Shown here piece by piece: positions 2,199 through 14,783 of a DNA stretch of 64,000 bases. Each line of letters opens with the position of its first letter. The stretch's first letter is position 1. Source of the DNA: Escherichia phage MIZ6; the sequence record OR192075.1; one strand, 5' to 3'. Under the pieces are notes generated by a model, which saw only the letters and a list, made by a program, of their open reading frames with translations, was not told where the DNA came from and ran no database searches. The position numbers were made by a program, and so were the translations under genes.

Positions 2199-3172
2199 TA
2201 TACGAACTCCAATTCAACCATTAATTGCATTAACAAAAAGACAATGTGAATCTCTTTATCAGCCGCGTGCGCAAACATCTGATTATTTTCACCGATAATC
2301 TCAGTGAGACGAATAATAGAAGCTGGCTTAACTTGAGTATACAACTCATTATAAAGTTTCTTGACAAATTGAGCGTATGTATTGGTATATCGCGGTGCAA
2401 GTTTACGTACATTAGCAAACTGTTTAGTTTTAAGTGCTTCCACCACATCGGTTACTTCGGTATTGCTACTTTCGATAACCATGCTCAATACGCCAGCATC
2501 AATTTTACCATGTTTAGCGTAGCGGTCCAAAAGTTTCATTACGCGTCGGAAGTCTGGGAAGTTCTGCTTAACCAGTTCCGCTAATACGCGCATTTCTTCT
2601 ACTGGCACACCTTCTTTATCAAGAATTGCTTTACACCGGACGATCATTTCTTTCATCATGCGAAGCTGATCATCTTTAGTCGGAGATCCAAACGTGATGG
2701 GATCAAATCGAGATCGTAACGCTGGGATAATACCTTCTAGATCGTTTGCTGTGATAATGAATGTCACGTTGTTTGAGTATGCCTCAGAGAAACTACGCAA
2801 GTGTCTTTGAGCGTCAGCCAACCCCGCTCGGTCATACTCATCGATAATAACAACTTTGCCTTTTTCTCGTTTTTCTTCATCGAGTGATACACTCTGCGCA
2901 AAGCGTGTAATCTCATCGCGGATAAAATCAATCTTACAATCTGCGCCGTTAACAAACAGATAATCAACACCCACATCTTCGCAAAGCGCCTTAGCAACGG
3001 TTGTTTTACCAGTACCAGGCGATGGGCTATGCAGGATCATAGAAGGGATTCGGCCTTGCTTAACAATCTGCGCGAAGATCTTTTTATCTGCTTCCGGCAG
3101 AATACATTCAGAAATTGATTTCGGACGGTATTTCTGTTCCCACTGAAACTCATTTTCATTAACACTCAGCAT
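2198..3172 (-). CDS. 44: clamp loader large subunit (gp44-like, AAA+ ATPase)
   Basis: Walker A SPSPGTGKTT, Walker B VVIIDEYD, and long colinear similarity to T4 gp44 (EQKYRP...ILHSPSPGTGKTTVAKALC...DFIR). Start placed at MLSVNENEF by alignment; the ORF track start at 3187 is also possible. Confidence 0.9.
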   Translation of the reverse strand: MLSVNENEFQWEQKYRPKSISECILPEADKKIFAQIVKQGRIPSMILHSPSPGTGKTTVAKALCEDVGVDYLFVNGADCKIDFIRDEITRFAQSVSLDEEKREKGKVVIIDEYDRAGLADAQRHLRSFSEAYSNNVTFIITANDLEGIIPALRSRFDPITFGSPTKDDQLRMMKEMIVRCKAILDKEGVPVEEMRVLAELVKQNFPDFRRVMKLLDRYAKHGKIDAGVLSMVIESSNTEVTDVVEALKTKQFANVRKLAPRYTNTYAQFVKKLYNELYTQVKPASIIRLTEIIGENNQMFAHAADKEIHIVFLLMQLMVELEFV

Positions 3173-3237
3173 ATAATCACCTCTCACAAATTACATCATT
3201 AAAACGGGGAGTATTTACACTCCCCACAAACATTATA

Positions 3238-3927
3238 TTAGTCGGTGTAGCTGGAGTCAAGGTCACACGCGATCATATAAGATACGGTTTCACTTGCCAG
3301 CCATACAGCCTTACGGCGAGTGAAGCTCAGTTTGTAATCGCCGAAGTCAGTAGCAACCAGTTTCATGTTATCTTTACGAATAAAGAAATGGAAGTCTGCG
3401 GTTCCGGTATATTCGCCCATATCAAGACAAAACATCTCATTAGGATTATTTTTGTCAATCTCTTCCCAGCCTTTGATCATCAGACGACCATCAATCGGAA
3501 GAAATTCAAGGCGATCCACTTTAAGCTGATTGCTCATTTTCATAAGCTGTTTCAGATCGTCGTTGCTCAGTTCGTAATCTACATCGCTTGCAGGTGGAGT
3601 AACTCGGCCTTTCGGTGATACGATAGCGGCAGCACTAGCACCAGGATAATTAATTTTCAGACGATCATTAGACACACGAATGTTTCCGGTTCGGTCATCA
3701 ACCGTAATATCTGCTTCATCGCCTACCAGATTCAGAATACCCAGGAAAGAGTTAAGATCATAGATCCCAATTTCGTGTTCCAGTTCTTGATTCAGAGTCG
3801 CTTCACCATATACAACGTTTGTCATGTTTTTGGTGATCAGGACGTTTCCTTTTTTCAGGATGATACCTGGGTTAATCGCGGAAAAGTTTTTCAGGGTAGC
3901 AATGGTTTCTTTAGTCAGTTTCATCAA
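3238..3927 (-). CDS. 45: sliding clamp (gp45-like)
   Basis: 229 aa; MMKLTKETIATLKNFSAINPGIILKKG and IYDLNSFLGILNLV parallel the T4 gp45 N-terminus; upstream of 44/62 as in T4. Confidence 0.9.
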   Translation of the reverse strand: MMKLTKETIATLKNFSAINPGIILKKGNVLITKNMTNVVYGEATLNQELEHEIGIYDLNSFLGILNLVGDEADITVDDRTGNIRVSNDRLKINYPGASAAAIVSPKGRVTPPASDVDYELSNDDLKQLMKMSNQLKVDRLEFLPIDGRLMIKGWEEIDKNNPNEMFCLDMGEYTGTADFHFFIRKDNMKLVATDFGDYKLSFTRRKAVWLASETVSYMIACDLDSSYTD

Positions 3928-4976: not shown

Positions 4977-6645
4977 TCATTTCAGTGAATCGCCCACGTT
5001 TAACCATCTTGAGATGACGGCTAAAATCATCAGGGTTATGGTCACGATGGCTGATAATATACACGTTATCATCTAACTTGTCAATGATGGAATCAAGTGC
5101 TTTTACGCCTTGAACGTCCGTAGCCCCATCATAAATTTCGTCGAGTACCAACAAAGAAATATTAGTACCAGATACCTTACCAGCAACATCACGCCATGTA
5201 AAGAGCATCGCAAGATCAATACGTGCTTTTTCGCCTTGACTGAATGATGTATACGAAAACGATTCACGCCCCCGTGATTTGATTGTTTCGTTAAACTCTT
5301 CATCTAGCGTAAAGATATAATCCGCTTCCATGATATCAAGATAATATGCAATCCGATCATTGAAATATGGAATATATTTCTTGACGATAGACGCCTTAAC
5401 ACCGGAATCCTTCAACATTTCTGTTACAAATCCACGGTGATATTTTTCAAGAACTAGCTTTGATTTTTCATTAGTAATCTCTACCAGTTCGTGTTCCAGT
5501 TTAGCAAGTTCTTCGGAATTGTCAACCCTTTCTTTTTGTAATTCCTGAATTGCTTTCTGGATCTGCTTAGCACGACCTACAGATGCCGTTAAATTCGCTC
5601 TCTGTGACTCTATAGCGCGTTTAATTTCCAAGACCTTAGTTTGTGCTGTCTGGAAAGAATTGGCCTTCTCTGCGTACTCTACGCGTTTCTCGTCAATCAG
5701 AGACAGTTTATGTTCTGCTTGTGCTTTTTGTTCTCGTACAGCTTGATCATTACCCTGAATGATCGGTTGTGTGCACGTAGGACAGATCCCGCCTTTCTCA
5801 TGCATATGAATAACACGGTCAAAGTTCTGGATCTGTGCACCAATCTGTGCGATAGCCGTATTAATTTTAGCCAATGCCGCGCTAGGATCTTCCGGCATAA
5901 CAACAGCCAATAGCTCATCGGTCAAGCGCGTTTCTTCGGCTTTAAATGCTTTAGCAGATTCTACCTCTTTATCATACATATTCTGTAAACGCTGGAGATT
6001 CTCGGCACTCGCCTTGCTAGCGTCTTCTATGTACTTTTTATGAGTGTTGATTTGTTGCTGAACGTGATTAGCTTTCATTTCCTGCATTTGGATATTCTGG
6101 GTAATCTCGCGCACATACGCTTTATTCAGTTTATCCATTTCGCCTAGTGTAGCAATATCAAGCAAATCCTCGACCAGTTTACGGCGACCCGCTGCCGGAA
6201 GACTCATAAACGGAACATAACCAGCAGTGCCTAAAACAACGATCTGTTTAAAGCTGGCTAGGTTCATGCCTATGATACCTTCAAAATATTCCTGAAAGTC
6301 TTTGGTGCTTGCGCTCTCGTCGATCTTTTGACCGTCTCGATGCACTTCGAATACTTCCGGCTTTTGTCCACGTTTAATATAAAATTCTTTCCCGTCCAGT
6401 TCAAACCAGACTTCGACTAACAGTTTCTTTTTGTTGACGCTGTTAATCAATTGGCCTTTCTTGATACTACGAAACGGTTTACCGAACAACACAAAGCAAA
6501 GCGCCTCAATCATGGTCGATTTACCAGCACCGTTAACACCAGTGATTAGTGTCTTTTTGAATCCGTCTAGCTGAATCTCTACAGGTTCAGCACCCACGCT
6601 CATTATATTTTGATAGCGCAAGGTTTTAAAATTTAACTTTGCCAT
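4963..6645 (-). CDS. 46: recombination endonuclease subunit gp46 (Rad50/SbcC-like ATPase)
   Basis: Walker A GVNGAGKST, signature/D-loop region SQGEKARIDLAMLF...LVLDE; strong colinear similarity to T4 gp46 (NIMSVG...KTLITG...EKYHRG...). Start set at MAKLNF by alignment. Confidence 0.92.
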   Translation of the reverse strand: MAKLNFKTLRYQNIMSVGAEPVEIQLDGFKKTLITGVNGAGKSTMIEALCFVLFGKPFRSIKKGQLINSVNKKKLLVEVWFELDGKEFYIKRGQKPEVFEVHRDGQKIDESASTKDFQEYFEGIIGMNLASFKQIVVLGTAGYVPFMSLPAAGRRKLVEDLLDIATLGEMDKLNKAYVREITQNIQMQEMKANHVQQQINTHKKYIEDASKASAENLQRLQNMYDKEVESAKAFKAEETRLTDELLAVVMPEDPSAALAKINTAIAQIGAQIQNFDRVIHMHEKGGICPTCTQPIIQGNDQAVREQKAQAEHKLSLIDEKRVEYAEKANSFQTAQTKVLEIKRAIESQRANLTASVGRAKQIQKAIQELQKERVDNSEELAKLEHELVEITNEKSKLVLEKYHRGFVTEMLKDSGVKASIVKKYIPYFNDRIAYYLDIMEADYIFTLDEEFNETIKSRGRESFSYTSFSQGEKARIDLAMLFTWRDVAGKVSGTNISLLVLDEIYDGATDVQGVKALDSIIDKLDDNVYIISHRDHNPDDFSRHLKMVKRGRFTEMNVNI

Positions 6646-6889
6646 TAATCCACTCCGCAATCACACATTCCATAATATTAAATGCTAACACATCTTCATC
6701 AATGTTGTAAACACTTGCCGCCTTCACTTTAACTAATGTGTCTCTGCGATCTGGCAACATGATCACATAATCCAGTGTCGCAGGATCATATGTCATAAAG
6801 GGATCAACATAAATCCCTTTATTCAATGCCAGATATTCGCGAAGACCTTCTATAACCCTGTGTCTAAGGTAGGTCATCGATAGAATCAT
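6626..6889 (-). CDS. hypothetical protein (46.1-position)
   Basis: 87 aa ORF between genes 47 and 46. Confidence 0.4.
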   Translation of the reverse strand: MILSMTYLRHRVIEGLREYLALNKGIYVDPFMTYDPATLDYVIMLPDRRDTLVKVKAASVYNIDEDVLAFNIMECVIAEWINGKVKF

Positions 6890-7482
6890 TTTAGTTTATG
6901 TTCCTCTAAAAATTCTTCAATTTCACCTTGCAGGTCTTCCGCTTGCTGTTCCAGAATATCGCGAAATTCACCTACAGTCAAGCGGTAATCACATTTCACC
7001 AGTCGATGCGGGAGAATATACCCTTTATACATTGTCTCTGACGCTTCCAGGAATACCCCACTATGCATGACAGAGATCCAACCTGTTAACGTCAATGGAG
7101 TATTCGGAAAATAATACTTGCTGGATTGTTTCCACTGTACGAAAGCACCATATACAATAGGATTATATTCACCAACCACACTCTTAATAATGGATTCTAC
7201 TTTGTCTTTTACAAAGTCGCCAATGTCCATAGTTATCATCAACTCTTTTGGATGAATAATTTTAAGGTAACGACGATAGCCATCATCATAATACAGCTTA
7301 ACTACTGGTTCACCCCACATAGACGAAATATTCGCTTTCAGATATCCATAAATCGGATTCTTATCATATGATTGTTTTAGCGTGTAGGTATGCAACAGCG
7401 TAATAAAATGTCGCATTACCAGTTTATCTGGATCAGCCGCGACCATAGTCGTATTCATAATATGTTCCTCGTTCAATTTCAT
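6886..7482 (-). CDS. hypothetical protein
   Basis: 198 aa ORF, stop/start overlap with neighbours. Confidence 0.4.
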   Translation of the reverse strand: MKLNEEHIMNTTMVAADPDKLVMRHFITLLHTYTLKQSYDKNPIYGYLKANISSMWGEPVVKLYYDDGYRRYLKIIHPKELMITMDIGDFVKDKVESIIKSVVGEYNPIVYGAFVQWKQSSKYYFPNTPLTLTGWISVMHSGVFLEASETMYKGYILPHRLVKCDYRLTVGEFRDILEQQAEDLQGEIEEFLEEHKLK

Positions 7483-7750
7483 ATTGTTTCAGGTCTTCTA
7501 AAAGTTCATCCACTGCTTGTTTCAGCACATGACGCAGCGTAAAGTAATAGCTTTCATCAAATTCTATTTCCGCGCGAGGAATAGAGCGAAACTTACACTT
7601 AACGGTAGTATCAGTGAGTCGCTTTTCGACCATCATCCGAACTTCTTCATGCTCTTTGGAATACCATACATCAACGGAGATCCCCTTACGTCGAGCAAAC
7701 ATAGGCAATGCCGCATTAAATTCCATGACCTTTTGTGCAAGTGTTTTCAT
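7433..7750 (-). CDS. hypothetical protein
   Basis: 105 aa minus-strand ORF in the 46-47 interval. Confidence 0.35.
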   Translation of the reverse strand: MKTLAQKVMEFNAALPMFARRKGISVDVWYSKEHEEVRMMVEKRLTDTTVKCKFRSIPRAEIEFDESYYFTLRHVLKQAVDELLEDLKQYEIERGTYYEYDYGRG

Positions 7751-8010
7751 CGTACAGACCCCATAGATCCACGCGCAATAACATTCTGAGTAATATCAGC
7801 AACCTTACGGGATACGATGTTTGTTAGCCCCTCTTTGGTGATATGTTCACGATCAAATGGGATTTCGTCATGAGTCCATAAACCATAGTTAGACCGAAAT
7901 GATAGCATATACTGACCATCTCGCACAACCTCAAATACATGGATCTTAGTGAATTTCGATAAACCTTCGTTGATTTCTTTCAGTGCATTAGTAATCATAA
8001 CAACCTCCAA
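7747..8010 (-). CDS. hypothetical protein
   Basis: 87 aa minus-strand ORF directly downstream of gene 47. Confidence 0.35.
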   Translation of the reverse strand: MEVVMITNALKEINEGLSKFTKIHVFEVVRDGQYMLSFRSNYGLWTHDEIPFDREHITKEGLTNIVSRKVADITQNVIARGSMGSVR

Positions 8011-8052
8011 TCAATTTTTAGAGAGTATAACGGGGATTTCTCCCCGCGTCAA

Positions 8053-9078
8053 CTAACTTTTTGCGCTATTTACTTCGGCTAAAAGTTCATCAGAAATACG
8101 CTTGACCGCCGCAAGTTCTTCCGGTTCTAGGTTTTGTTCTTCCAGATATTCATAGACCATCTGAATAGTGCTTTTAACTTCAATAACACCTGTTTCCTGT
8201 GATGCGCTACTCTCCAGCTTATGGACCACTTTTAGCTTGTGTACAACGGCCTCTAACGCGCTTTCTAACTTACTTAACCCATTATCAGCAACCGTTGCGA
8301 TAAGACGCACACTAAGCCCCTTAAAGCGTTCTACATCGATTTTATCATCTGACGGGTAAGTGATACGCACATGATAAGTTTTATCATTCTGGATAAACTC
8401 TTTTTTGTGTGTATCGGTATCGAATACCCAAAAACCACGCGGATCGTTTTCGTCACCAGCCGTTAGTGTGTATGGTGTACCAATATACGTTACGTTACCG
8501 CCATCACTGATAGTATGAAAGTGACCAGAAAACACTTCACGGTATTTCTTGAGGAAGTCCGCGCTATAACCTTCTGATTTTAGCCCTTTATAGAAATAGT
8601 AACCGGACAATTCCCAATGGCCTACACAATATTCGCTGAATGAGTTTTGAATAAACTCTAAAATCTCTGATTTATTGTCATCACAAAACCACGGGAACAG
8701 ATCAAATGATACACCATCAAAGGTGACTGTTTCCGGCTTATCGATAACTTTAATACAATCATACTGGCTTAACACTTCACGCGGTGCGTTAGGCTGGATC
8801 TTGTTTCGTTTAAACATATCATGGTTCCCGACCGTGATATAACAAGTAATACCAGCCTCTTCCAGTAACGGGATGACCTTAGTGCGGTTAAATTTCATGG
8901 TTTCATGGGTAATTGCTTTTCGGCAATCAAACCAATCCCCTGTTTGAATCCATGTCTTAATATTATGCTCTTTGGAGTATTCAACCGCCTTCTTGATGGT
9001 ATCAAGAATATACTCATGCACCCACGGATCATCGCCACCGATACCAGTATGCAGATCACCTAAAAGCAAAATTTTCAT
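8053..9078 (-). CDS. 47: recombination endonuclease subunit gp47 (Mre11/SbcD-like phosphoesterase)
   Basis: 341 aa; N-terminal MKILLLGDLHTG metallophosphoesterase motif, GDWFD, GNHD; size and position match T4 gene 47. Confidence 0.9.
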   Translation of the reverse strand: MKILLLGDLHTGIGGDDPWVHEYILDTIKKAVEYSKEHNIKTWIQTGDWFDCRKAITHETMKFNRTKVIPLLEEAGITCYITVGNHDMFKRNKIQPNAPREVLSQYDCIKVIDKPETVTFDGVSFDLFPWFCDDNKSEILEFIQNSFSEYCVGHWELSGYYFYKGLKSEGYSADFLKKYREVFSGHFHTISDGGNVTYIGTPYTLTAGDENDPRGFWVFDTDTHKKEFIQNDKTYHVRITYPSDDKIDVERFKGLSVRLIATVADNGLSKLESALEAVVHKLKVVHKLESSASQETGVIEVKSTIQMVYEYLEEQNLEPEELAAVKRISDELLAEVNSAKS

Positions 9079-9168
9079 AGTCTCTTCCTCTCTTCGTTTT
9101 CGATGCTCTCACTATATCACAGAAAAATAAAAAGGGAAACCCCTTTCAGAGTCTCCCTTATAAAGCCA

Positions 9169-9456
9169 TTACAGCATACTTAATACAGTTTGCCGTGTAC
9201 TAATCCACATAGCAGAAAGCAGTTCTGGCGTGTGTGGCTGTTTGTAGATATCACGTAACTTTCCGATAGCGTAGATATACGCATCGCGGTTATCATCGAT
9301 GATAGCTTGTTCAGCCCACCGCTTAAGGCGTGCAATCTCTCGCGAGTTCTTACGCAAGATCTTTTCCGCTTTCTTAGCGGCTTTAGCCTCTAGTTCTGCT
9401 TGTACTTTGTCTACTTCATTCACTGCAATCTGGTCATGCTGTTCATTGCAAGTCAT
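9169..9456 (-). CDS. hypothetical protein
   Basis: 95 aa ORF between genes 55 and 47. Confidence 0.35.
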   Translation of the reverse strand: MTCNEQHDQIAVNEVDKVQAELEAKAAKKAEKILRKNSREIARLKRWAEQAIIDDNRDAYIYAIGKLRDIYKQPHTPELLSAMWISTRQTVLSML

Positions 9457-9457
9457 A

Positions 9458-9691
9458 TTATTTTACCTCTGGGATATAATCAATTATTAAAGAAAATTCA
9501 TCTTCTGATACATTATAGCTATGTGAGATTGTACCCGTAAAGACCTCAAGATCCGGTGATTTGATATTGCACGGATCGATAATCACCGGAACGCCGCAAT
9601 CTCTCAAAAATAATTTGGCGAAATACGGCACGAGGTCAGTTTCAAACTCTGCTTCTTCCAGCAAACGGGAAATGTTAATTTTCAATCTCAT
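9458..9691 (-). CDS. hypothetical protein
   Basis: 77 aa ORF overlapping the gene 55 stop. Confidence 0.35.
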
Positions 9692-10208
9692 AAAATTGGT
9701 CCAAGCTAGGCAATTCCTCGGTCAATACATCTTCAACCTTTGGCGCTTTCGGTTTATTGACCGATTCCTCGTAGTTGTTGATTTTATCGTAAATGTCCTG
9801 TATGAATGCCTCATCAGCAATCTGGCACATATCAGCGTCGCGTTCGTCATATACATGATGCACAAAATATTTGTATTTTGCGGCTGTCGCTGTTCTTTCT
9901 TTTTTAATGCGCTGTACAAAAGCATTAAAGCACGCTTGCGTGATGTAAGCATGAGGATTTTTATACTTTGTCTCGTCAAAATTAATCAAACCCTTGACCG
10001 CCGCTTCGATTCCGTCGTCGATCATTTCTTCGCGCCATGTTTGACTATAACCAGAAAAGTTAAAACGACGTGATAGATTTTTAGAGATTTGCATAATTGC
10101 TAGGCCGATTTGATCGCTCATTGGAACTTGCCGACCTTCTGCTGCAATTTGTTGTTTCCAACGGCAAATTTCTTCGTAAAGCTCTTTATTGTTTACATAA
10201 TCAGACAC
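9675..10208 (-). CDS. 55: late-transcription sigma factor gp55
   Basis: 177 aa; YVNNKEL...IGLAIM...[10 protein letters not shown]...[25 protein letters not shown]...IQDIYDK almost colinear with T4 gp55 as recalled. Confidence 0.92.
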
Positions 10209-10248
10209 TTCGCACCCTCGCTATTATTTAGGAAATAACCCTTTCGGG

Positions 10249-11718
10249 CTATTCCCCATTACCATTATACTTTCTTTGCTTAGTTATCCACACTCTAACC
10301 ATCTCTACGGATTCACCGTCAGACGGATCAAGAGTTTTTCCTTTTTTCTTCATGCGGTACTTAAATCCGTTAAATCTTGCATTCTCTTGCTCGTTAAAGT
10401 CGAACATCTTTTTAAATGATTTTCGCCCTTTACGCTCACCGCATTCTAGCGGAATCATTCGGTCTGTTATTACATTGGCATTAGGCAGAAACGTTTTTAG
10501 ATAATCCACCAACGCCCAATCAGGAACATATAGATTAACATTCTCCTTGCTCTCGTTGTCTCTCAGGTTACAACGCAAACATAATTGAAATGCTGGTTCC
10601 AGATAATCAGACACATGACGCGCTTTCAAAAACTCGTTTGTTGGGAGATCACAACTATTAGCAAGACCTTTTAAAATATCAATCTCCCATCGTTGAGGGT
10701 TAAAGCTGAACATCACAGCAACATTTTTATGATGAATGTAAGAGTTAAGACCATAAGATCCGTAAGGTATCCGCTCACCAATACCATTTGTGCACGCTTC
10801 ACGGTCCCGATTCACGGTATAAATGAAGTCATCACCACATTCATTTTTAACCATATCAACAAGACGTTCAAAGGTATTGTTTGTTTCTGACTGGTGACGC
10901 GACCATCGTTCGGAGTCCGTCATAAGGATGATGTTAACTCTATCTGTATTTTTATACTCTTTGAAATATAGTCTGGATTCTAGCGCACTCGGAACAAAAT
11001 CGCAATTTGCATAGTATCGTAGATACTTCCCACTATATGTATCAAAGAGATTTGCACATGCTATCGTAACCTTTTTAAAGTCTCCCCACGTACCGTGTTT
11101 GTTATCGTTCAAGAAAACAATTTTCGACCCATTCTTCCGGTGTCCTTCGTTATGTTTTACCATAACGTTGATTTTCTTCTCTAATAACGCCTCATAAAGC
11201 CCTCTAAGAGAAGAATCGATCATATCAGTACCATCCTTTGCACTTTCTATCTTTTCTTTGATAGCGGCCTTCTCAGAGTCTTTTAGAACTAAGTTCTGTA
11301 GGCATTCCGATTCGTCGGCGATTGGTTCGCAATGCTTCGTGATAAGTTCAAGATTAGACTTAAACGGATACTCATTAAATTCAACCAGTTGAGGAACTTC
11401 ATCAATGTAAAGAGCATATTCACCAAACATTTTTGAACGTTCCATATTAGATAACGCTGTATGTGTAATGAATATCACATCAGCACCATCTTTAACTGAT
11501 TGCATTATAGACGCTTGCACTGTCTTAAGGCTTCTTAGTCTTGTGCTATCAATCAAGACAGCACGACCGCCCATTCTTTTAAACTTATTGTAAGATTGTT
11601 CACTTAAAACACGAGATGGCGAAGCAATAACCGCTTTTTCTTTTGTCTCTAGGACGTGGGAAAGTATAGCATCAGTTTTCCCCGCCGCTGGCAATGCGAT
11701 TAATGTTTCAATCTTCAT
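10249..11718 (-). CDS. P-loop NTPase of unknown function (helicase-like N-terminal motifs, Cys-containing C-terminal half)
   Basis: 489 aa; deviant Walker A LPAAGKT near the N-terminus, ASPSRVL (motif Ia-like), hhhhDE at YIDEVPQ; C-terminal half has no recognisable domain. No T4 counterpart recognised; lies between gene 55 and nrdH. Confidence 0.55.
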   Translation of the reverse strand: MKIETLIALPAAGKTDAILSHVLETKEKAVIASPSRVLSEQSYNKFKRMGGRAVLIDSTRLRSLKTVQASIMQSVKDGADVIFITHTALSNMERSKMFGEYALYIDEVPQLVEFNEYPFKSNLELITKHCEPIADESECLQNLVLKDSEKAAIKEKIESAKDGTDMIDSSLRGLYEALLEKKINVMVKHNEGHRKNGSKIVFLNDNKHGTWGDFKKVTIACANLFDTYSGKYLRYYANCDFVPSALESRLYFKEYKNTDRVNIILMTDSERWSRHQSETNNTFERLVDMVKNECGDDFIYTVNRDREACTNGIGERIPYGSYGLNSYIHHKNVAVMFSFNPQRWEIDILKGLANSCDLPTNEFLKARHVSDYLEPAFQLCLRCNLRDNESKENVNLYVPDWALVDYLKTFLPNANVITDRMIPLECGERKGRKSFKKMFDFNEQENARFNGFKYRMKKKGKTLDPSDGESVEMVRVWITKQRKYNGNGE

Positions 11719-12023
11719 TAGAAACCCTTACGTCGTGCTTTCTGGCATTTCTTGATCATTTTATCAGAAATTTCGCGCTTAGGTGCAATCTCTTTCACAC
11801 CGAAAGCACTAATGCCAAATTCAGAGAGAATATATTCAACTAACAATTCACGCACACGCGCTTTACCGATATTCACGCCGTTATTTTTCAGATATGTCTG
11901 GCCTTCGACTTGCATCAGATCTAAATCAGCGTCGGTAATATTGATTTCTTCCATGCGCCCAAATCGAGAGTAAACCATGTGTGCGATTGTATTGTGTACT
12001 AACATAATATATTCCTCACTCAA
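11718..12023 (-). CDS. hypothetical protein
   Basis: 101 aa; its stop overlaps the start of the NTPase gene (translational coupling). Confidence 0.4.
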   Translation of the reverse strand: MSEEYIMLVHNTIAHMVYSRFGRMEEINITDADLDLMQVEGQTYLKNNGVNIGKARVRELLVEYILSEFGISAFGVKEIAPKREISDKMIKKCQKARRKGF

Positions 12024-12026
12024 GAA

Positions 12027-12134
12027 TTACTTAATGATACTTACTTTACCAGATCCGTGACAATGAGCGCAACACCCATCACCACGCAATCCTGTTCCGT
12101 TACAGTGTTTACACTTCTTCAACGGTAAAGCCAT
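12027..12134 (-). CDS. candidate small Cys-rich peptide (35 aa, zinc-ribbon-like)
   Basis: Hand-translated minus-strand ORF MALPLKKCKHCNGTGLRGDGCCAHCHGSGKVSIIK in the 150-bp gap between nrdH and the next gene; below the ORF-track size cutoff; weak RBS. Confidence 0.25.
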   Translation of the reverse strand: MALPLKKCKHCNGTGLRGDGCCAHCHGSGKVSIIK

Positions 12135-12174
12135 TATAACAAATAAAGCAATAATGAACACCGAAACTAAATTC

Positions 12175-12444
12175 TCAATAATCATAAATCGCCCTCAGTT
12201 CTTTATAGCCTCCAATGTGCTCGTTGTTAATGAATATCTGGGGGTATACAAACCGGAGGCTCTTTGAGTTCAGCCTCCCCGCCAGTTCTTCAATCATATC
12301 ACGGTCGGGAATAATGTCAACCCCGACCTGCTTGAATACTGGTTTAAGTGTATACGGAATACCCAGATCATCCAGTAGCTTCATTGCACTAATACAACCA
12401 TAACAATGATAAGCCTCTTTCGGTATGCCGTATATCTCGATCAT
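12175..12444 (-). CDS. nrdH: glutaredoxin-like protein (NrdH-type)
   Basis: 89 aa; CYGC redox motif near the N-terminus and C-terminal YPQIFINNEHIGGY typical of the glutaredoxin/thioredoxin fold. Confidence 0.7.
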   Translation of the reverse strand: MIEIYGIPKEAYHCYGCISAMKLLDDLGIPYTLKPVFKQVGVDIIPDRDMIEELAGRLNSKSLRFVYPQIFINNEHIGGYKELRAIYDY

Positions 12445-12941
12445 TTCTCAGCCTTTAATCTTTCTAGTTCTTCTTCCAGTTCCTTGATCCGTTGGTCACG
12501 TTCAAAGTCACGTTGTAGCTTAGTGGCAAATACCCGCTTAAACTGATTGTAATCATCGATTTTAAACACTTCTTCTTCGCCATAGCGACGTACAGAAACT
12601 TCGTAGTTATTGAAGAATTGTTGCATCATTGCTTCGGATGATAGTTCTGCTGATACTACTTTAAAATATTGATCTTCTGTAGGCGAAAACCAATTACAAG
12701 CATAAAGATAAACCTTTTCATTGTCTGGGCACTGGTAAGCCTTACCATCGATTTCAATCACAGAAACATATTCAGGTATAGTAGATGAATCAATAGCTAA
12801 GACTTTAAACTGACGGTCCCCGATAAACTCAGAGATCACACGATTCGCATCACTGGTTGCAAAGGCTTTACGCGCTTGTTCGCTTTTCCACTGATAGGTC
12901 ATACCAACAACAAACATATTACCAACCTCGCTCTTTACCAA
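12441..12941 (-). CDS. repeat-domain family protein (single domain, coiled-coil tail)
   Basis: 166 aa; shares the GxTYxWK...F(K/T)V..(I/V)(E/D)..G...F(F/K)xV pattern with the neighbouring paralogues; C-terminal ELEEELERLKAEK. Confidence 0.5.
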   Translation of the reverse strand: MVKSEVGNMFVVGMTYQWKSEQARKAFATSDANRVISEFIGDRQFKVLAIDSSTIPEYVSVIEIDGKAYQCPDNEKVYLYACNWFSPTEDQYFKVVSAELSSEAMMQQFFNNYEVSVRRYGEEEVFKIDDYNQFKRVFATKLQRDFERDQRIKELEEELERLKAEK

Positions 12942-13743
12942 TCAAAAATTCAACTTCACGACGTTTAATGTCTTCTTGAAGGTCTTTAATCTTCTGGCGA
13001 TCTTGCATGATTTCGTCCATTTTGTCAAGTGCTGCAATAAAATCATCGAAACGTTCAAAGGTTTTACCTTCATTTGCTTCGCCAAATTTAACCATAGTCA
13101 GACCGTAACGACTACTAAACAGACGTTTCAACTGTCCAACGATCTTAGAATCAGTGGTTATAACTTCCAATTCTTCTACTTCTTGAAAGAATTTTCTATC
13201 AGAATCAATAAACCAGCTAGTTCCTTTATGGTTGCTATCTTCGGTTGCACTCATTAGAGTATGGTCTTTACCATCAATTTCAATTACATCAATTTGCCCA
13301 CATGGACGAACATTTTTAACAGTAAAAGGTCTATAATTTATTGCTCGTGCAATAACATAATTAAGGTTAGATACGTTTTCAGCATAATGGCAGAAGTCGG
13401 TCATAGCATTCGCATCTTTCCAAGTATAAGTTTTACCAACTTCCCATTTCTGGGGAACTTCTTCAACTTCACGAAAGAATTTTCTATCGAATGGACTAAA
13501 GAAATATGTTGCCGTCCAAATGTCTTTTCCTGTAGCAGTTTTCGCCGTATGATAAACACCGTCTAGCTCTATTGCATTAATCCAACCATTACCCTCGATC
13601 TCGATGATGGTAAATGGCTTGTCACCAATAGCTGCACTAATATCGCTATTAAGTGGAGAAAGAACACCTTCTCCGTTAGTAATAAACTCAGTTTTAGCGT
13701 TTACATCTTTCCAGGTGTAAGTTTTACCAATTTCCCATTTCAT
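12919..13743 (-). CDS. repeat-domain family protein with internal tandem duplication
   Basis: 274 aa; MKWEIGKTYTWKDVNAKTEF...FFREVEEV followed by KWEVGKTYTWKDANAMTDF...FFQEVEEL, i.e. two copies of the same roughly 98-aa domain. Confidence 0.5.
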   Translation of the reverse strand: MKWEIGKTYTWKDVNAKTEFITNGEGVLSPLNSDISAAIGDKPFTIIEIEGNGWINAIELDGVYHTAKTATGKDIWTATYFFSPFDRKFFREVEEVPQKWEVGKTYTWKDANAMTDFCHYAENVSNLNYVIARAINYRPFTVKNVRPCGQIDVIEIDGKDHTLMSATEDSNHKGTSWFIDSDRKFFQEVEELEVITTDSKIVGQLKRLFSSRYGLTMVKFGEANEGKTFERFDDFIAALDKMDEIMQDRQKIKDLQEDIKRREVEFLIGKERGW

Positions 13744-13755
13744 AATATATTCCCC

Positions 13756-14241
13756 TTAACCGATTTTATCAAGTTCGTTTAATGCTTTCTCTGCTTCCTG
13801 TATAGCTTGCACCCTTTCCGGCATTTTGTCAAGAAAATCTTTCAACTCTTCAAAACTGGAGATATGACGCAAGGCATTAGCACCGATAGCCGCATGTGAT
13901 TTGCATTCAAAGCGAATTTTATAATTATCCATAGCCAATTTGAGAAGATCAATTAGATCATATTCACGACCAGGCAATAAAACTTCTTTGAAGCACGCTC
14001 GGTCGCCATCGGAAAACCATATATTATCGCCAACATCGATAGAACTAATATAATCCCCTTCGTGATTATAGATTGAACGTACATTACCCCAACGGTCTAC
14101 AGTAGCGACAGTAAATGGTTTATCTAGATATGTAAACACACCATCAATATTAGGTTTTTGTTCGTAACGCCAACAATCACGCAAAATACGCTTTTCGTAC
14201 TCACCAACCAACTTATATGTCTTCCCTTCTTCCCATTTCAT
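13756..14241 (-). CDS. repeat-domain family protein
   Basis: Starts MKWEEGKTYKL (internal Met of the listed ORF); same domain pattern; C-terminal helical tail. Confidence 0.45.
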   Translation of the reverse strand: MKWEEGKTYKLVGEYEKRILRDCWRYEQKPNIDGVFTYLDKPFTVATVDRWGNVRSIYNHEGDYISSIDVGDNIWFSDGDRACFKEVLLPGREYDLIDLLKLAMDNYKIRFECKSHAAIGANALRHISSFEELKDFLDKMPERVQAIQEAEKALNELDKIG

Positions 14242-14245
14242 AATA

Positions 14246-14773
14246 TCATCTCTCATTTTTGATATGTGATTCTAATTGGATCATACGGTCGCGCGTTTGC
14301 TTATATTCTCGGATAGCACCGATCCGGCTAGGCATACCATCCAGTACGCTCTTAATCCCTTCTAGGGTAGTGATTTTAGCAATACTATTATGCAATCCCA
14401 TCTTATCGATTAACTGAATGTCGTAGGCTTCCATAAGCAGACCCAGACGTTCTAAAGTTAGGTCTTCTTCTTTTTCTTCCGATTCTGGAATCTTAGGTTC
14501 AATAGTAACTTCGGTAAAGAAACGACGCTCGCCCGACCAAAACCACACACCGGAACAGCCAATAGGGGATTCTTTTAACGTCATAGAGTCGTAACCGCTG
14601 CCGATAATAGTAATTTCTCTAACATCACCATCATCGTCAATGTCTTCTACCCTAAACGGGCGACCAGCCAACAAGTCAACAATACATCTGTTAATAGACG
14701 ACGAAAATTTAGTCAGTTCGGCTTTCGACGCTTCGCATTCAATCTTGTAAGTTTTACCAACTTCCCATTCCAT
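14246..14773 (-). CDS. repeat-domain family protein
   Basis: Starts MEWEVGKTYKI; same domain pattern, acidic linker, helical tail. Confidence 0.45.
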   Translation of the reverse strand: MEWEVGKTYKIECEASKAELTKFSSSINRCIVDLLAGRPFRVEDIDDDGDVREITIIGSGYDSMTLKESPIGCSGVWFWSGERRFFTEVTIEPKIPESEEKEEDLTLERLGLLMEAYDIQLIDKMGLHNSIAKITTLEGIKSVLDGMPSRIGAIREYKQTRDRMIQLESHIKNER

Positions 14774-14783
14774 AATAATCACC

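Follow-up and report, generated by a model that had tools for sequence, protein, structure and literature searches.

A superfamily 2 helicase-like protein encoded next to gene 55 in Escherichia phage MIZ6 and its T4-like relatives

In the present study, we followed up a gene of Escherichia phage MIZ6 that lies within a 64,000-nucleotide stretch of sequence record OR192075.1; this whole stretch is referred to below as the window. The gene encodes a protein of 489 amino acids (aa), which an initial annotation, made from the letters alone, had left as an unassigned P-loop NTPase. In our judgement the protein is very probably an active nucleic-acid motor of superfamily 2 (SF2), and it is probable, at a lower level of assurance, that it serves as an SF2 DNA helicase or translocase with an accessory part in phage DNA replication, restart or recombination, and that, like a homologue of T4 gp55.2 with which it would be produced, it appears ahead of late transcription. 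It is an ordinary SF2 helicase, as yet uncharacterised, and not a new kind of system or a new principle. The gene is the following:

10249..11718, minus strand: coding sequence of the 489-aa SF2 helicase-like protein (orthologue of RB49ORF044c, PHROG 2467), taken from the listing of open reading frames (ORFs), with an ATG start.

Positions 9000-13000 of the window match Escherichia phages MIZ2 and MIZ3 at 100% identity and RB49 at 98.9%, and judged by its sequence the window belongs to Krischvirus, family Straboviridae. The protein itself shows 100% identity to RB49ORF044c, which is labelled 'hypothetical protein' in RB49; the GenBank record of phage W115 names the helicase-like gene 'putative helicase'. 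Its place between gene 55 and nrdH (12175..12444), as first annotated, agrees with the ORF listing, the library scans and the RB49 annotation alike. In a tblastn search, homologues were found in 243 phage records, at full length (at least 80% coverage) in 237, from phages of Aeromonas, Escherichia (RB49-like and RB43-like), Cronobacter, Enterobacter, Citrobacter, Klebsiella, Serratia, Proteus and other hosts, with a gap in identity between the Krischvirus orthologues (at least 93%) and all others (below 60%). The protein also matches PHROG 2467, a family of unknown function, from end to end (E 8.8e-175; residues 1-489 align with positions 8-502 of the 502 in the profile). With such homologues and such a match, the ORF is, on sequence grounds, far beyond what chance would give, and its composition is native (GC content 0.39, against 0.403 for the window).

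The evidence that carries the assignment begins with the motifs. We aligned 33 homologues sharing 32-74% identity, scored the resulting profile against 1.84 billion representative proteins (1,312 clusters at 50% identity matched at E<=1e-3, and 750 at E<=1e-10), and computed conservation over 141 of the best distant representatives. The features within the gene, all on the minus strand, are these, with invariance referring to the 33 homologues:

11674..11697, minus strand: motif I (Walker A), residues 8-15, ALPAAGKT; P10, G13, K14 and T15 invariant.
11593..11625, minus strand: motif Ia, residues 32-42, ASPSRVLSEQS, following the RecA1 beta-strand 29-33; S33, L38 and S42 invariant.
11392..11412, minus strand: motif II (Walker B), residues 103-109, LYIDEVP; D106 and E107 close beta-strand 102-106.
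11074..11391, minus strand: inserted segment of about 106 aa (residues 110-215) that separates motif II from motif III, topologically where XPD and DinG have their Arch domain.
11050..11067, minus strand: motif III-like TIACAN, residues 218-223, in beta-strand 216-221.
10744..10755, minus strand: motif V-like YGLN, residues 322-325, in RecA2; G323 and N325 invariant.
10561..10587, minus strand: motif VI, the arginine-finger motif, residues 378-386, QLCLRCNLR; Q378, R382 and R386 invariant.
10252..10446, minus strand: basic helical C-terminal tail, residues 425-489, with helices at 435-438, 443-458 and 468-486 and 17 lysines and arginines against 9 aspartates and glutamates.

The three short motifs picked out in the initial annotation, LPAAGKT (residues 9-15), ASPSRVL (32-38) and YIDEVPQ (104-110), are all present in the translation and correspond to SF2 motifs I, Ia and II. 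The Walker A had been called deviant, which it is only when measured against GxxxxGKT; AxxxxGKT is the usual form of motif I in SF2. Likewise, the roughly 380 residues that had been described as free of recognisable motifs turn out, from the alignment and a structural model, to contain a second RecA-like domain, with TIACAN at 218-223, G323 and N325, the Q378-R382-R386 triad and VPD at 398-400. In the alignment, invariant or near-invariant positions further include the Ib-like T85 and H86, D106, E107 and P109 of motif II, T218 to N223, N303, N340, F377, V398, P399 and D400, while E445 and W477 are invariant in the tail, and C130 and C380 are the sole invariant cysteines of the family. Among the 141 distant representatives, D106, E107, G323, N325, Q378, R382 and R386 are kept in every one, A222 and N303 in 93% each, and G13, K14 and T15 in 87%, 89% and 80%, respectively. 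Taken together, the two sets of conservation data indicate that the supposedly motif-free residues hold the rest of a complete SF2 motor with strongly constrained catalytic residues, so that motifs I (AxxxxGKT), Ia, II (DExx), III and VI (QxxxRxxxR) extend over two RecA-like domains, as is general in SF2.

Library scans by sequence returned little. The only Pfam family above its cutoff was DEAD (PF00270; 27.4 bits against 26, residues 11-130), and the same gene had already been listed as RB49ORF044c with a weak Pfam DEAD match (E 0.069) by Nolan et al. 2006 (PMC1524935). For the 489-aa protein, neither DEAD_2 nor Helicase_C_2 was matched at E<=1 in Pfam, nor was herpesvirus UL9 (PF02399), a similarity reported for a sister pVOG; NCBIfam gave no match, and searches of PDB sequences, run once with the protein itself and once with the profile, yielded no helicase or solved relative. 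An AlphaFold2 model built from the alignment (pLDDT 88.1, pTM 0.77) has two alpha/beta domains, and the top matches in a Foldseek search against the PDB were CasDinG (8s35_M, E 8e-11), XPD (5h8w) and DinG (6fwr). In human XPD, the Arch domain is placed between motifs II and III. The extra aligned length and the 106-residue insertion between motif II (106) and motif III (218) fit an XPD/DinG-like layout of the phage protein, in which the inserted residues 110-215 may be an Arch-like element. The likeness is one of architecture and not of Pfam membership by sequence.

The wider family offers what we regard as the strongest functional clue. Its representatives fall into two size classes, of about 450-550 aa and about 750-900 aa; in the long forms the helicase core is N-terminal and is followed by an extension of about 340 aa, common to 63 of the 64 long representatives. 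The last 60 or so residues of this extension give a sub-threshold Pfam match to PriCT_1 (E 0.0013), beyond which Pfam scans of the long relatives' extensions returned nothing, and the PHROG 'DNA primase' profile matches the same PriCT_1 region at E 1e-8. By fold search, the extension is assigned as an AEP primase-polymerase domain. One relative (P0121) has an N-terminal extension instead, with DxD-type and CHC2-like motifs, which a reading of these motifs, unsupported by Pfam, would make AEP-like. The repeated fusion to a primase-polymerase, as read from these sequences, points to unwinding coupled to priming in the replication of mobile DNA.

The surroundings of the relatives are those of mobile elements. 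One element, seen on two near-identical metagenome contigs (10001-12445 and 7856-10300), runs from a tyrosine integrase through an HTH_17 gene and the long form to cargo, and this integrase-HTH_17-helicase-primase arrangement is apparently an undescribed replication module of small integrative islands. The cargo of the element is defence-like (Metallophos, PLD and Mrr_cat). Elsewhere, a long form occurs with a resolvase, AAA_25 and a PolB-type exonuclease, another has an integrase nearby, a chromosomal copy in Bradyrhizobium adjoins an ATP-dependent DNA ligase, and one short form adjoins a resolvase. A tblastn search of a long form against plasmids yielded only two weak, partial matches.

Such a family has been foreseen. 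Kazlauskas et al. 2018 (J Mol Biol 430:737; PMC5862659) pointed to domains of only remote SF2 similarity in some of the All3500-family AEP primases, and predicted a new helicase family from uncharacterised proteins of 'some T4-like phages' that are kin to the helicase domains fused to AEP primases. In our searches, the profile built from T4-like phages retrieved hundreds of helicase-AEP fusions, and by sequence the phage protein belongs to this primase-associated SF2-like family already predicted in the literature.

The phage protein is not one of the known T4 helicases. RB49 has its own dda (6395-7786), uvsW (101286-102788) and gene 41 (plus gene 61), and since it encodes its own Dda, gp41 and UvsW, the 489-aa protein is an additional helicase. 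The initial annotation had named a confident match to a core helicase such as UvsW or Dda as the result that would overturn it, and we found none: BLASTP gave insignificant values against RB49 UvsW (E 3.1) and RB49 Dda (E 0.17), and T4 UvsW (2oca) came only 45th in the Foldseek ranking, with a TM score of 0.20. Identity with either protein was therefore rejected, in the case of UvsW by sequence and equally by the place next to uvsY.

The locus bears on when the protein may be made and with what partner. The relevant features are:

11718..12023, minus strand: gp55.2 homologue (DUF7570), the upstream ORF overlapping the helicase gene, with its likely start at ATG 12005 (95 aa); Pfam DUF7570 at E 3.2e-28, and annotated 55.2 in RB49.
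9675..10208, minus strand: gene 55 (late sigma factor), immediately downstream of the helicase gene; phrog_234 at E 4e-63, and so annotated in RB49.
12034..12063, minus strand: sigma-70-like match TTGTCA-18-TATCAT just upstream of the gp55.2 homologue; a consensus match only.
9132..9159, minus strand: terminator-like hairpin after the a-gt.4 homologue, with a stem of 12 pairs followed by a T-run.

The start of the helicase gene is coupled to the upstream ORF, as had been proposed, in the form of a TAATG in which the TAA of that ORF shares one base with the ATG of the helicase gene, with AAGGG, which resembles a ribosome-binding element, 6 nucleotides upstream. The length of 101 aa first given to the upstream ORF reflects a mechanical TTG start; ATG 12005, preceded by a GAGG Shine-Dalgarno sequence, is the most likely start and gives 95 aa, as in the RB49 annotation. 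Its identity as a gp55.2 homologue, which had been missed, is clear at the sequence level, and the ORF also matches a profile built from gp55.2 of T4, RB43 and Aes508. We compared the synteny in seven T4-like lineages, namely RB49, RB43, Aes508, Proteus PM2, Cronobacter S13, Aeromonas Assk and Erwinia Cronus. In all but RB43 the helicase gene stands directly upstream of gene 55, followed by a-gt.5, a-gt.4, 47 and 46; in RB43, 55.2 is still upstream of the helicase gene, but gene 34 is next downstream. Throughout the seven, a small ORF in front runs into the helicase start; by the gp55.2 profile this ORF is a 55.2 homologue in five (RB49, RB43, PM2, S13 and Assk), whereas the 55.2 homologue lies further upstream by two ORFs in Aes508 and by five in Cronus. 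Many T4-like phages beyond the classical T-even group thus keep the gene at this place next to the late sigma factor gene. T4 itself carries 55.1 in the helicase slot and has 55.2 without the helicase.

As for expression, the match at 12034..12063 is a possible early promoter for 55.2, the helicase gene and gene 55, and the hairpin at 9132..9159 probably ends the transcription unit. In promoter and terminator scans the regional site counts were not above those of shuffled sequences (a total of 24 against 20.2), and no TATAAATA late-promoter consensus was found within 9-13 kb of the window. Early expression of the helicase gene would be plausible. In the spacer between the helicase stop and gene 55 (10209-10248, minus strand) there is also a small GAAA-tetraloop hairpin (AGCCC-GAAA-GGGTT), which, having no T-run, is not terminator-like and may be an element of RNA stability or processing.

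From the above, we propose the following mode of action. The protein would be a stand-alone, NTP-driven SF2 motor composed of RecA1 (motifs I, Ia and II), the insertion, motif III, RecA2 (motif VI) and the basic tail. ATP would be bound and hydrolysed at the cleft between the two RecA domains, and hydrolysis would drive translocation on single-stranded DNA and separation of the strands, presumably in the 5'->3' direction by analogy with XPD and DinG. The protein, expressed along with the gp55.2 homologue, would be an accessory helicase for replication, replication restart or recombination, active ahead of late transcription and working beside gp41, Dda and UvsW without replacing them.

Several points weigh against this proposal. 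The members of the family are known from sequences and models and not from experiment; by sequence no solved relative turned up, and the sole Pfam match, to DEAD, is marginal and confined to RecA1. In XPD and DinG, the iron-sulphur (Fe-S) domain forms part of the strand-separating pore. Since motif II of the phage protein reads DEVP and the Fe-S domain is missing, unwinding and its polarity are not readable from the fold, and the predicted Arch likeness comes down to the position of the insertion and the aligned length. With three helicases already in the phage, a role in replication is not needed a priori, and the T-even phages manage without the gene. Finally, the phage form has no primase domain, so that the evidence from the fusions bears on it indirectly.

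Among the alternatives, the first takes the helicase and its neighbour as a module of DNA topology, in which the gp55.2 homologue inhibits host topoisomerase I, hypernegative supercoiling and R-loops follow, and the helicase removes or exploits the resulting RNA-DNA hybrids or structures. DinG and CasDinG, which stand among the closest folds, unwind R-loops and RNA-DNA hybrids. The one-base overlap of stop and start, the overlapping 55.2 homologue directly upstream in five lineages, and the reported inhibition of E. coli topoisomerase I by T4 gp55.2, with altered supercoiling (PMC4396842), all speak in its favour. Nevertheless, 55.2 occurs in 1,092 phage records, T-even phages accounting for many, as against 243 for the helicase, and is independent of it in T4, and the two genes are separated in Aes508 and Cronus. 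Because of this wide occurrence, and of T4 having 55.2 without the helicase, the linkage may merely reflect a conserved T4-like gene order, and we consider the module rather unlikely. A bolder extension of our own proposal, to which we likewise give only a small chance, is that in many T4-like phages other than the T-evens a fourth helicase, derived from the helicase-primases of mobile elements and coupled to gp55.2, provides a route of replication initiation, replication restart or R-loop processing that T4 lacks, and that its study would give the first characterised member of a family of primase-associated SF2 helicases, XPD/DinG-like in architecture but without Fe-S, whose clusters number over 1,000. 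We also asked whether the protein takes the place of MotA-dependent origin activation where motA is missing, and rejected this, motA co-occurring with the gene in Aeromonas phage 25 and Providencia phage PSTRCR_121.

The second alternative is a motor of anti-defence or host takeover, one that would push aside host nucleases or defence helicases or serve as a decoy for them, or would remodel the DNA of the host. The gene does sit in an early accessory block whose T4 counterparts, 55.1 and 55.2, modulate host proteins (PMC4396842), and it is dispensable in T-even phages. Its fixed position, its 35-42% identity across genera and hosts and its fully kept catalytic residues, however, suit a housekeeping accessory enzyme better than a gene engaged in an arms race, and its relatives are fused to primases and not to nucleases or sensors. 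A PADLOC scan gave nothing significant, the only match being RTasSLATT at E 0.0088 (13.6 bits, over 60 residues). Nothing specific speaks for this alternative, and we think it quite improbable. Thus, of the three options left standing in the initial annotation, the helicase- or translocase-like enzyme is upheld by sequence, fold and family context, whereas the anti-defence factor and the modification enzyme, discussed below, are not.

That the protein is a DEAD-box-like RNA helicase acting on phage or host transcripts is very improbable. It is true that DEAD is the one Pfam family above cutoff, here as, at similar weakness, in the work of Nolan et al.; but the match is confined to the generic motifs of RecA1, motif II is DEVP instead of DEAD, and the fusions in the family are to DNA primase-polymerases. 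Still less credible is a mobile-element replication gene in decay, with no function left in the phage, as might be suggested by relatives that are replication-type proteins of integrative elements and by the lost primase part, given that the ORF is intact in the 237 phage records, the catalytic residues are invariant, the locus is kept across genera and the composition is native.

The weakest alternative, a DNA-modification enzyme that stands in for a-gt or is tied to cytosine modification in Krischvirus, is largely refuted and retains next to no probability. The gene had been thought to lie where T4 carries the alpha-glucosyltransferase gene; the T4 order is 47, 47.1, a-gt, mobB, a-gt.2 to a-gt.5, 55, 55.1, 55.2 and onward to nrdH, which puts a-gt between 47 and 55 and the 489-aa gene in the 55.1 slot. 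Moreover, Erwinia phage Cronus has, upstream of gene 55, a homologue of 42% identity and, between 55 and 47, also a-gt, and because it carries both, the helicase gene is no stand-in for a-gt. The replacement was rejected on these two grounds, and the fold is that of a helicase and neither a transferase nor a synthase. A 2026 paper described glucosylated hydroxymethyl-type cytosines, made by an unknown pathway, in some Krischvirus phages (PMC13390438), and SAP has modified cytosines likewise of unknown pathway; compared with SAP, TB34, with canonical cytosines, has a one-base homopolymer deletion (TB34 position 1593 against SAP position 1594 in the stretches compared) that shifts the frame at what is codon 460 of the window gene and truncates the helicase tail. 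This link was dropped, since the published SAP/TB34 variant table holds 34 frameshifts genome-wide, including those in the essential genes for the prohead core protein and gp47; the codon-460 frameshift is most likely assembly noise, and the gene is intact throughout Krischvirus. We also noted that, in the interval from uvsX to gene 43, RB49 (1-23000) lacks both gene 42 (dCMP hydroxymethylase) and beta-gt, yet it keeps a gp56 dCTPase homologue.

Some further features of the neighbourhood deserve mention. Between nrdH and 55.2, a 52-aa ORF (12027-12185, minus strand; orthologue of RB49ORF046c) has a hydrophobic N-terminal segment and a CxxCxGxG...CxxCxGxG zinc-finger motif of DnaJ type, with weak Pfam matches only. 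At 12441-14782 (minus strand), four successive ORFs of 166, 274, 166 and 178 aa open with a similar 'W-E-x-GKTY-x-W/K' module, which occurs twice in the 274-aa ORF, and they look like a tandem paralogous family between nrdH and nrdG (RB49ORF048c-051c). In RB49, an HNH/AP2 homing-endonuclease ORF (RB49ORF040c, 3095-3649 of the RB49 stretch) lies between 47 and a-gt.4; the window lacks this ORF at about 9080-9169, which breaks the alignment of the window with RB49 into two pieces, and represents a presence/absence polymorphism of a mobile endonuclease.

The replication and recombination of T4 are textbook systems with three helicases, gp41, Dda and UvsW. A fourth conserved helicase in relatives of the RB49, RB43, Aeromonas, Proteus, Cronobacter and Erwinia types would mean that, for a large part of the family, the T4 paradigm does not give the full picture. 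The phage core corresponds to the helicase portion of an as yet unstudied helicase-primase that is very common in integrative elements, so that the small, soluble phage version could serve as a biochemical handle on the whole family, and its tight coupling with the gp55.2 homologue offers a concrete and testable way to connect a phage DNA motor with how host topoisomerase I is controlled.

How, then, does the protein compare with known systems? Like UvsW (SF2) and Dda (superfamily 1B), it would be a monomer-type accessory DNA helicase of T4-like phages, expressed before the late genes and plausibly taking part in replication, recombination or repair; unlike them, it is orthologous to neither. 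Among known families, the domain layout comes closest to XPD/Rad3/DinG and CasDinG. Unlike XPD and DinG, the phage protein has DEVP (IDEVP) and not DEAH as motif II, lacks the four-cysteine Fe-S domain between motifs Ia and II (there are no cysteines at all in residues 1-129), is much smaller at 489 aa, and ends in the basic helical tail; some DinG relatives, such as CasDinG, also do without an Fe-S cluster. P4 alpha and the D5-like primase-helicases resemble the long forms in joining a helicase to a primase, and in one element the long form likewise follows an integrase and an AlpA-like helix-turn-helix gene. In P4 alpha and D5-like proteins, however, a helicase of superfamily 3 or 4 is C-terminal to the primase, whereas the long forms of the present family have an SF2 helicase at the N-terminus and the phage protein of the window has no primase domain. 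The closest counterparts are the pVOG1685/9714-like helicases of Kazlauskas et al. 2018, matched here by description, with which the family shares remote similarity to SF2, members in T4-like phages and AEP-fused homologues in mobile elements. The fusions published there are of the order primase-zf-CHC2-helicase, and most of those found in the present study are helicase-AEP-PriCT; the fold assignment, this reverse order of fusion, the size of the family and the phage synteny, including the link to 55.2, are new with respect to that work.

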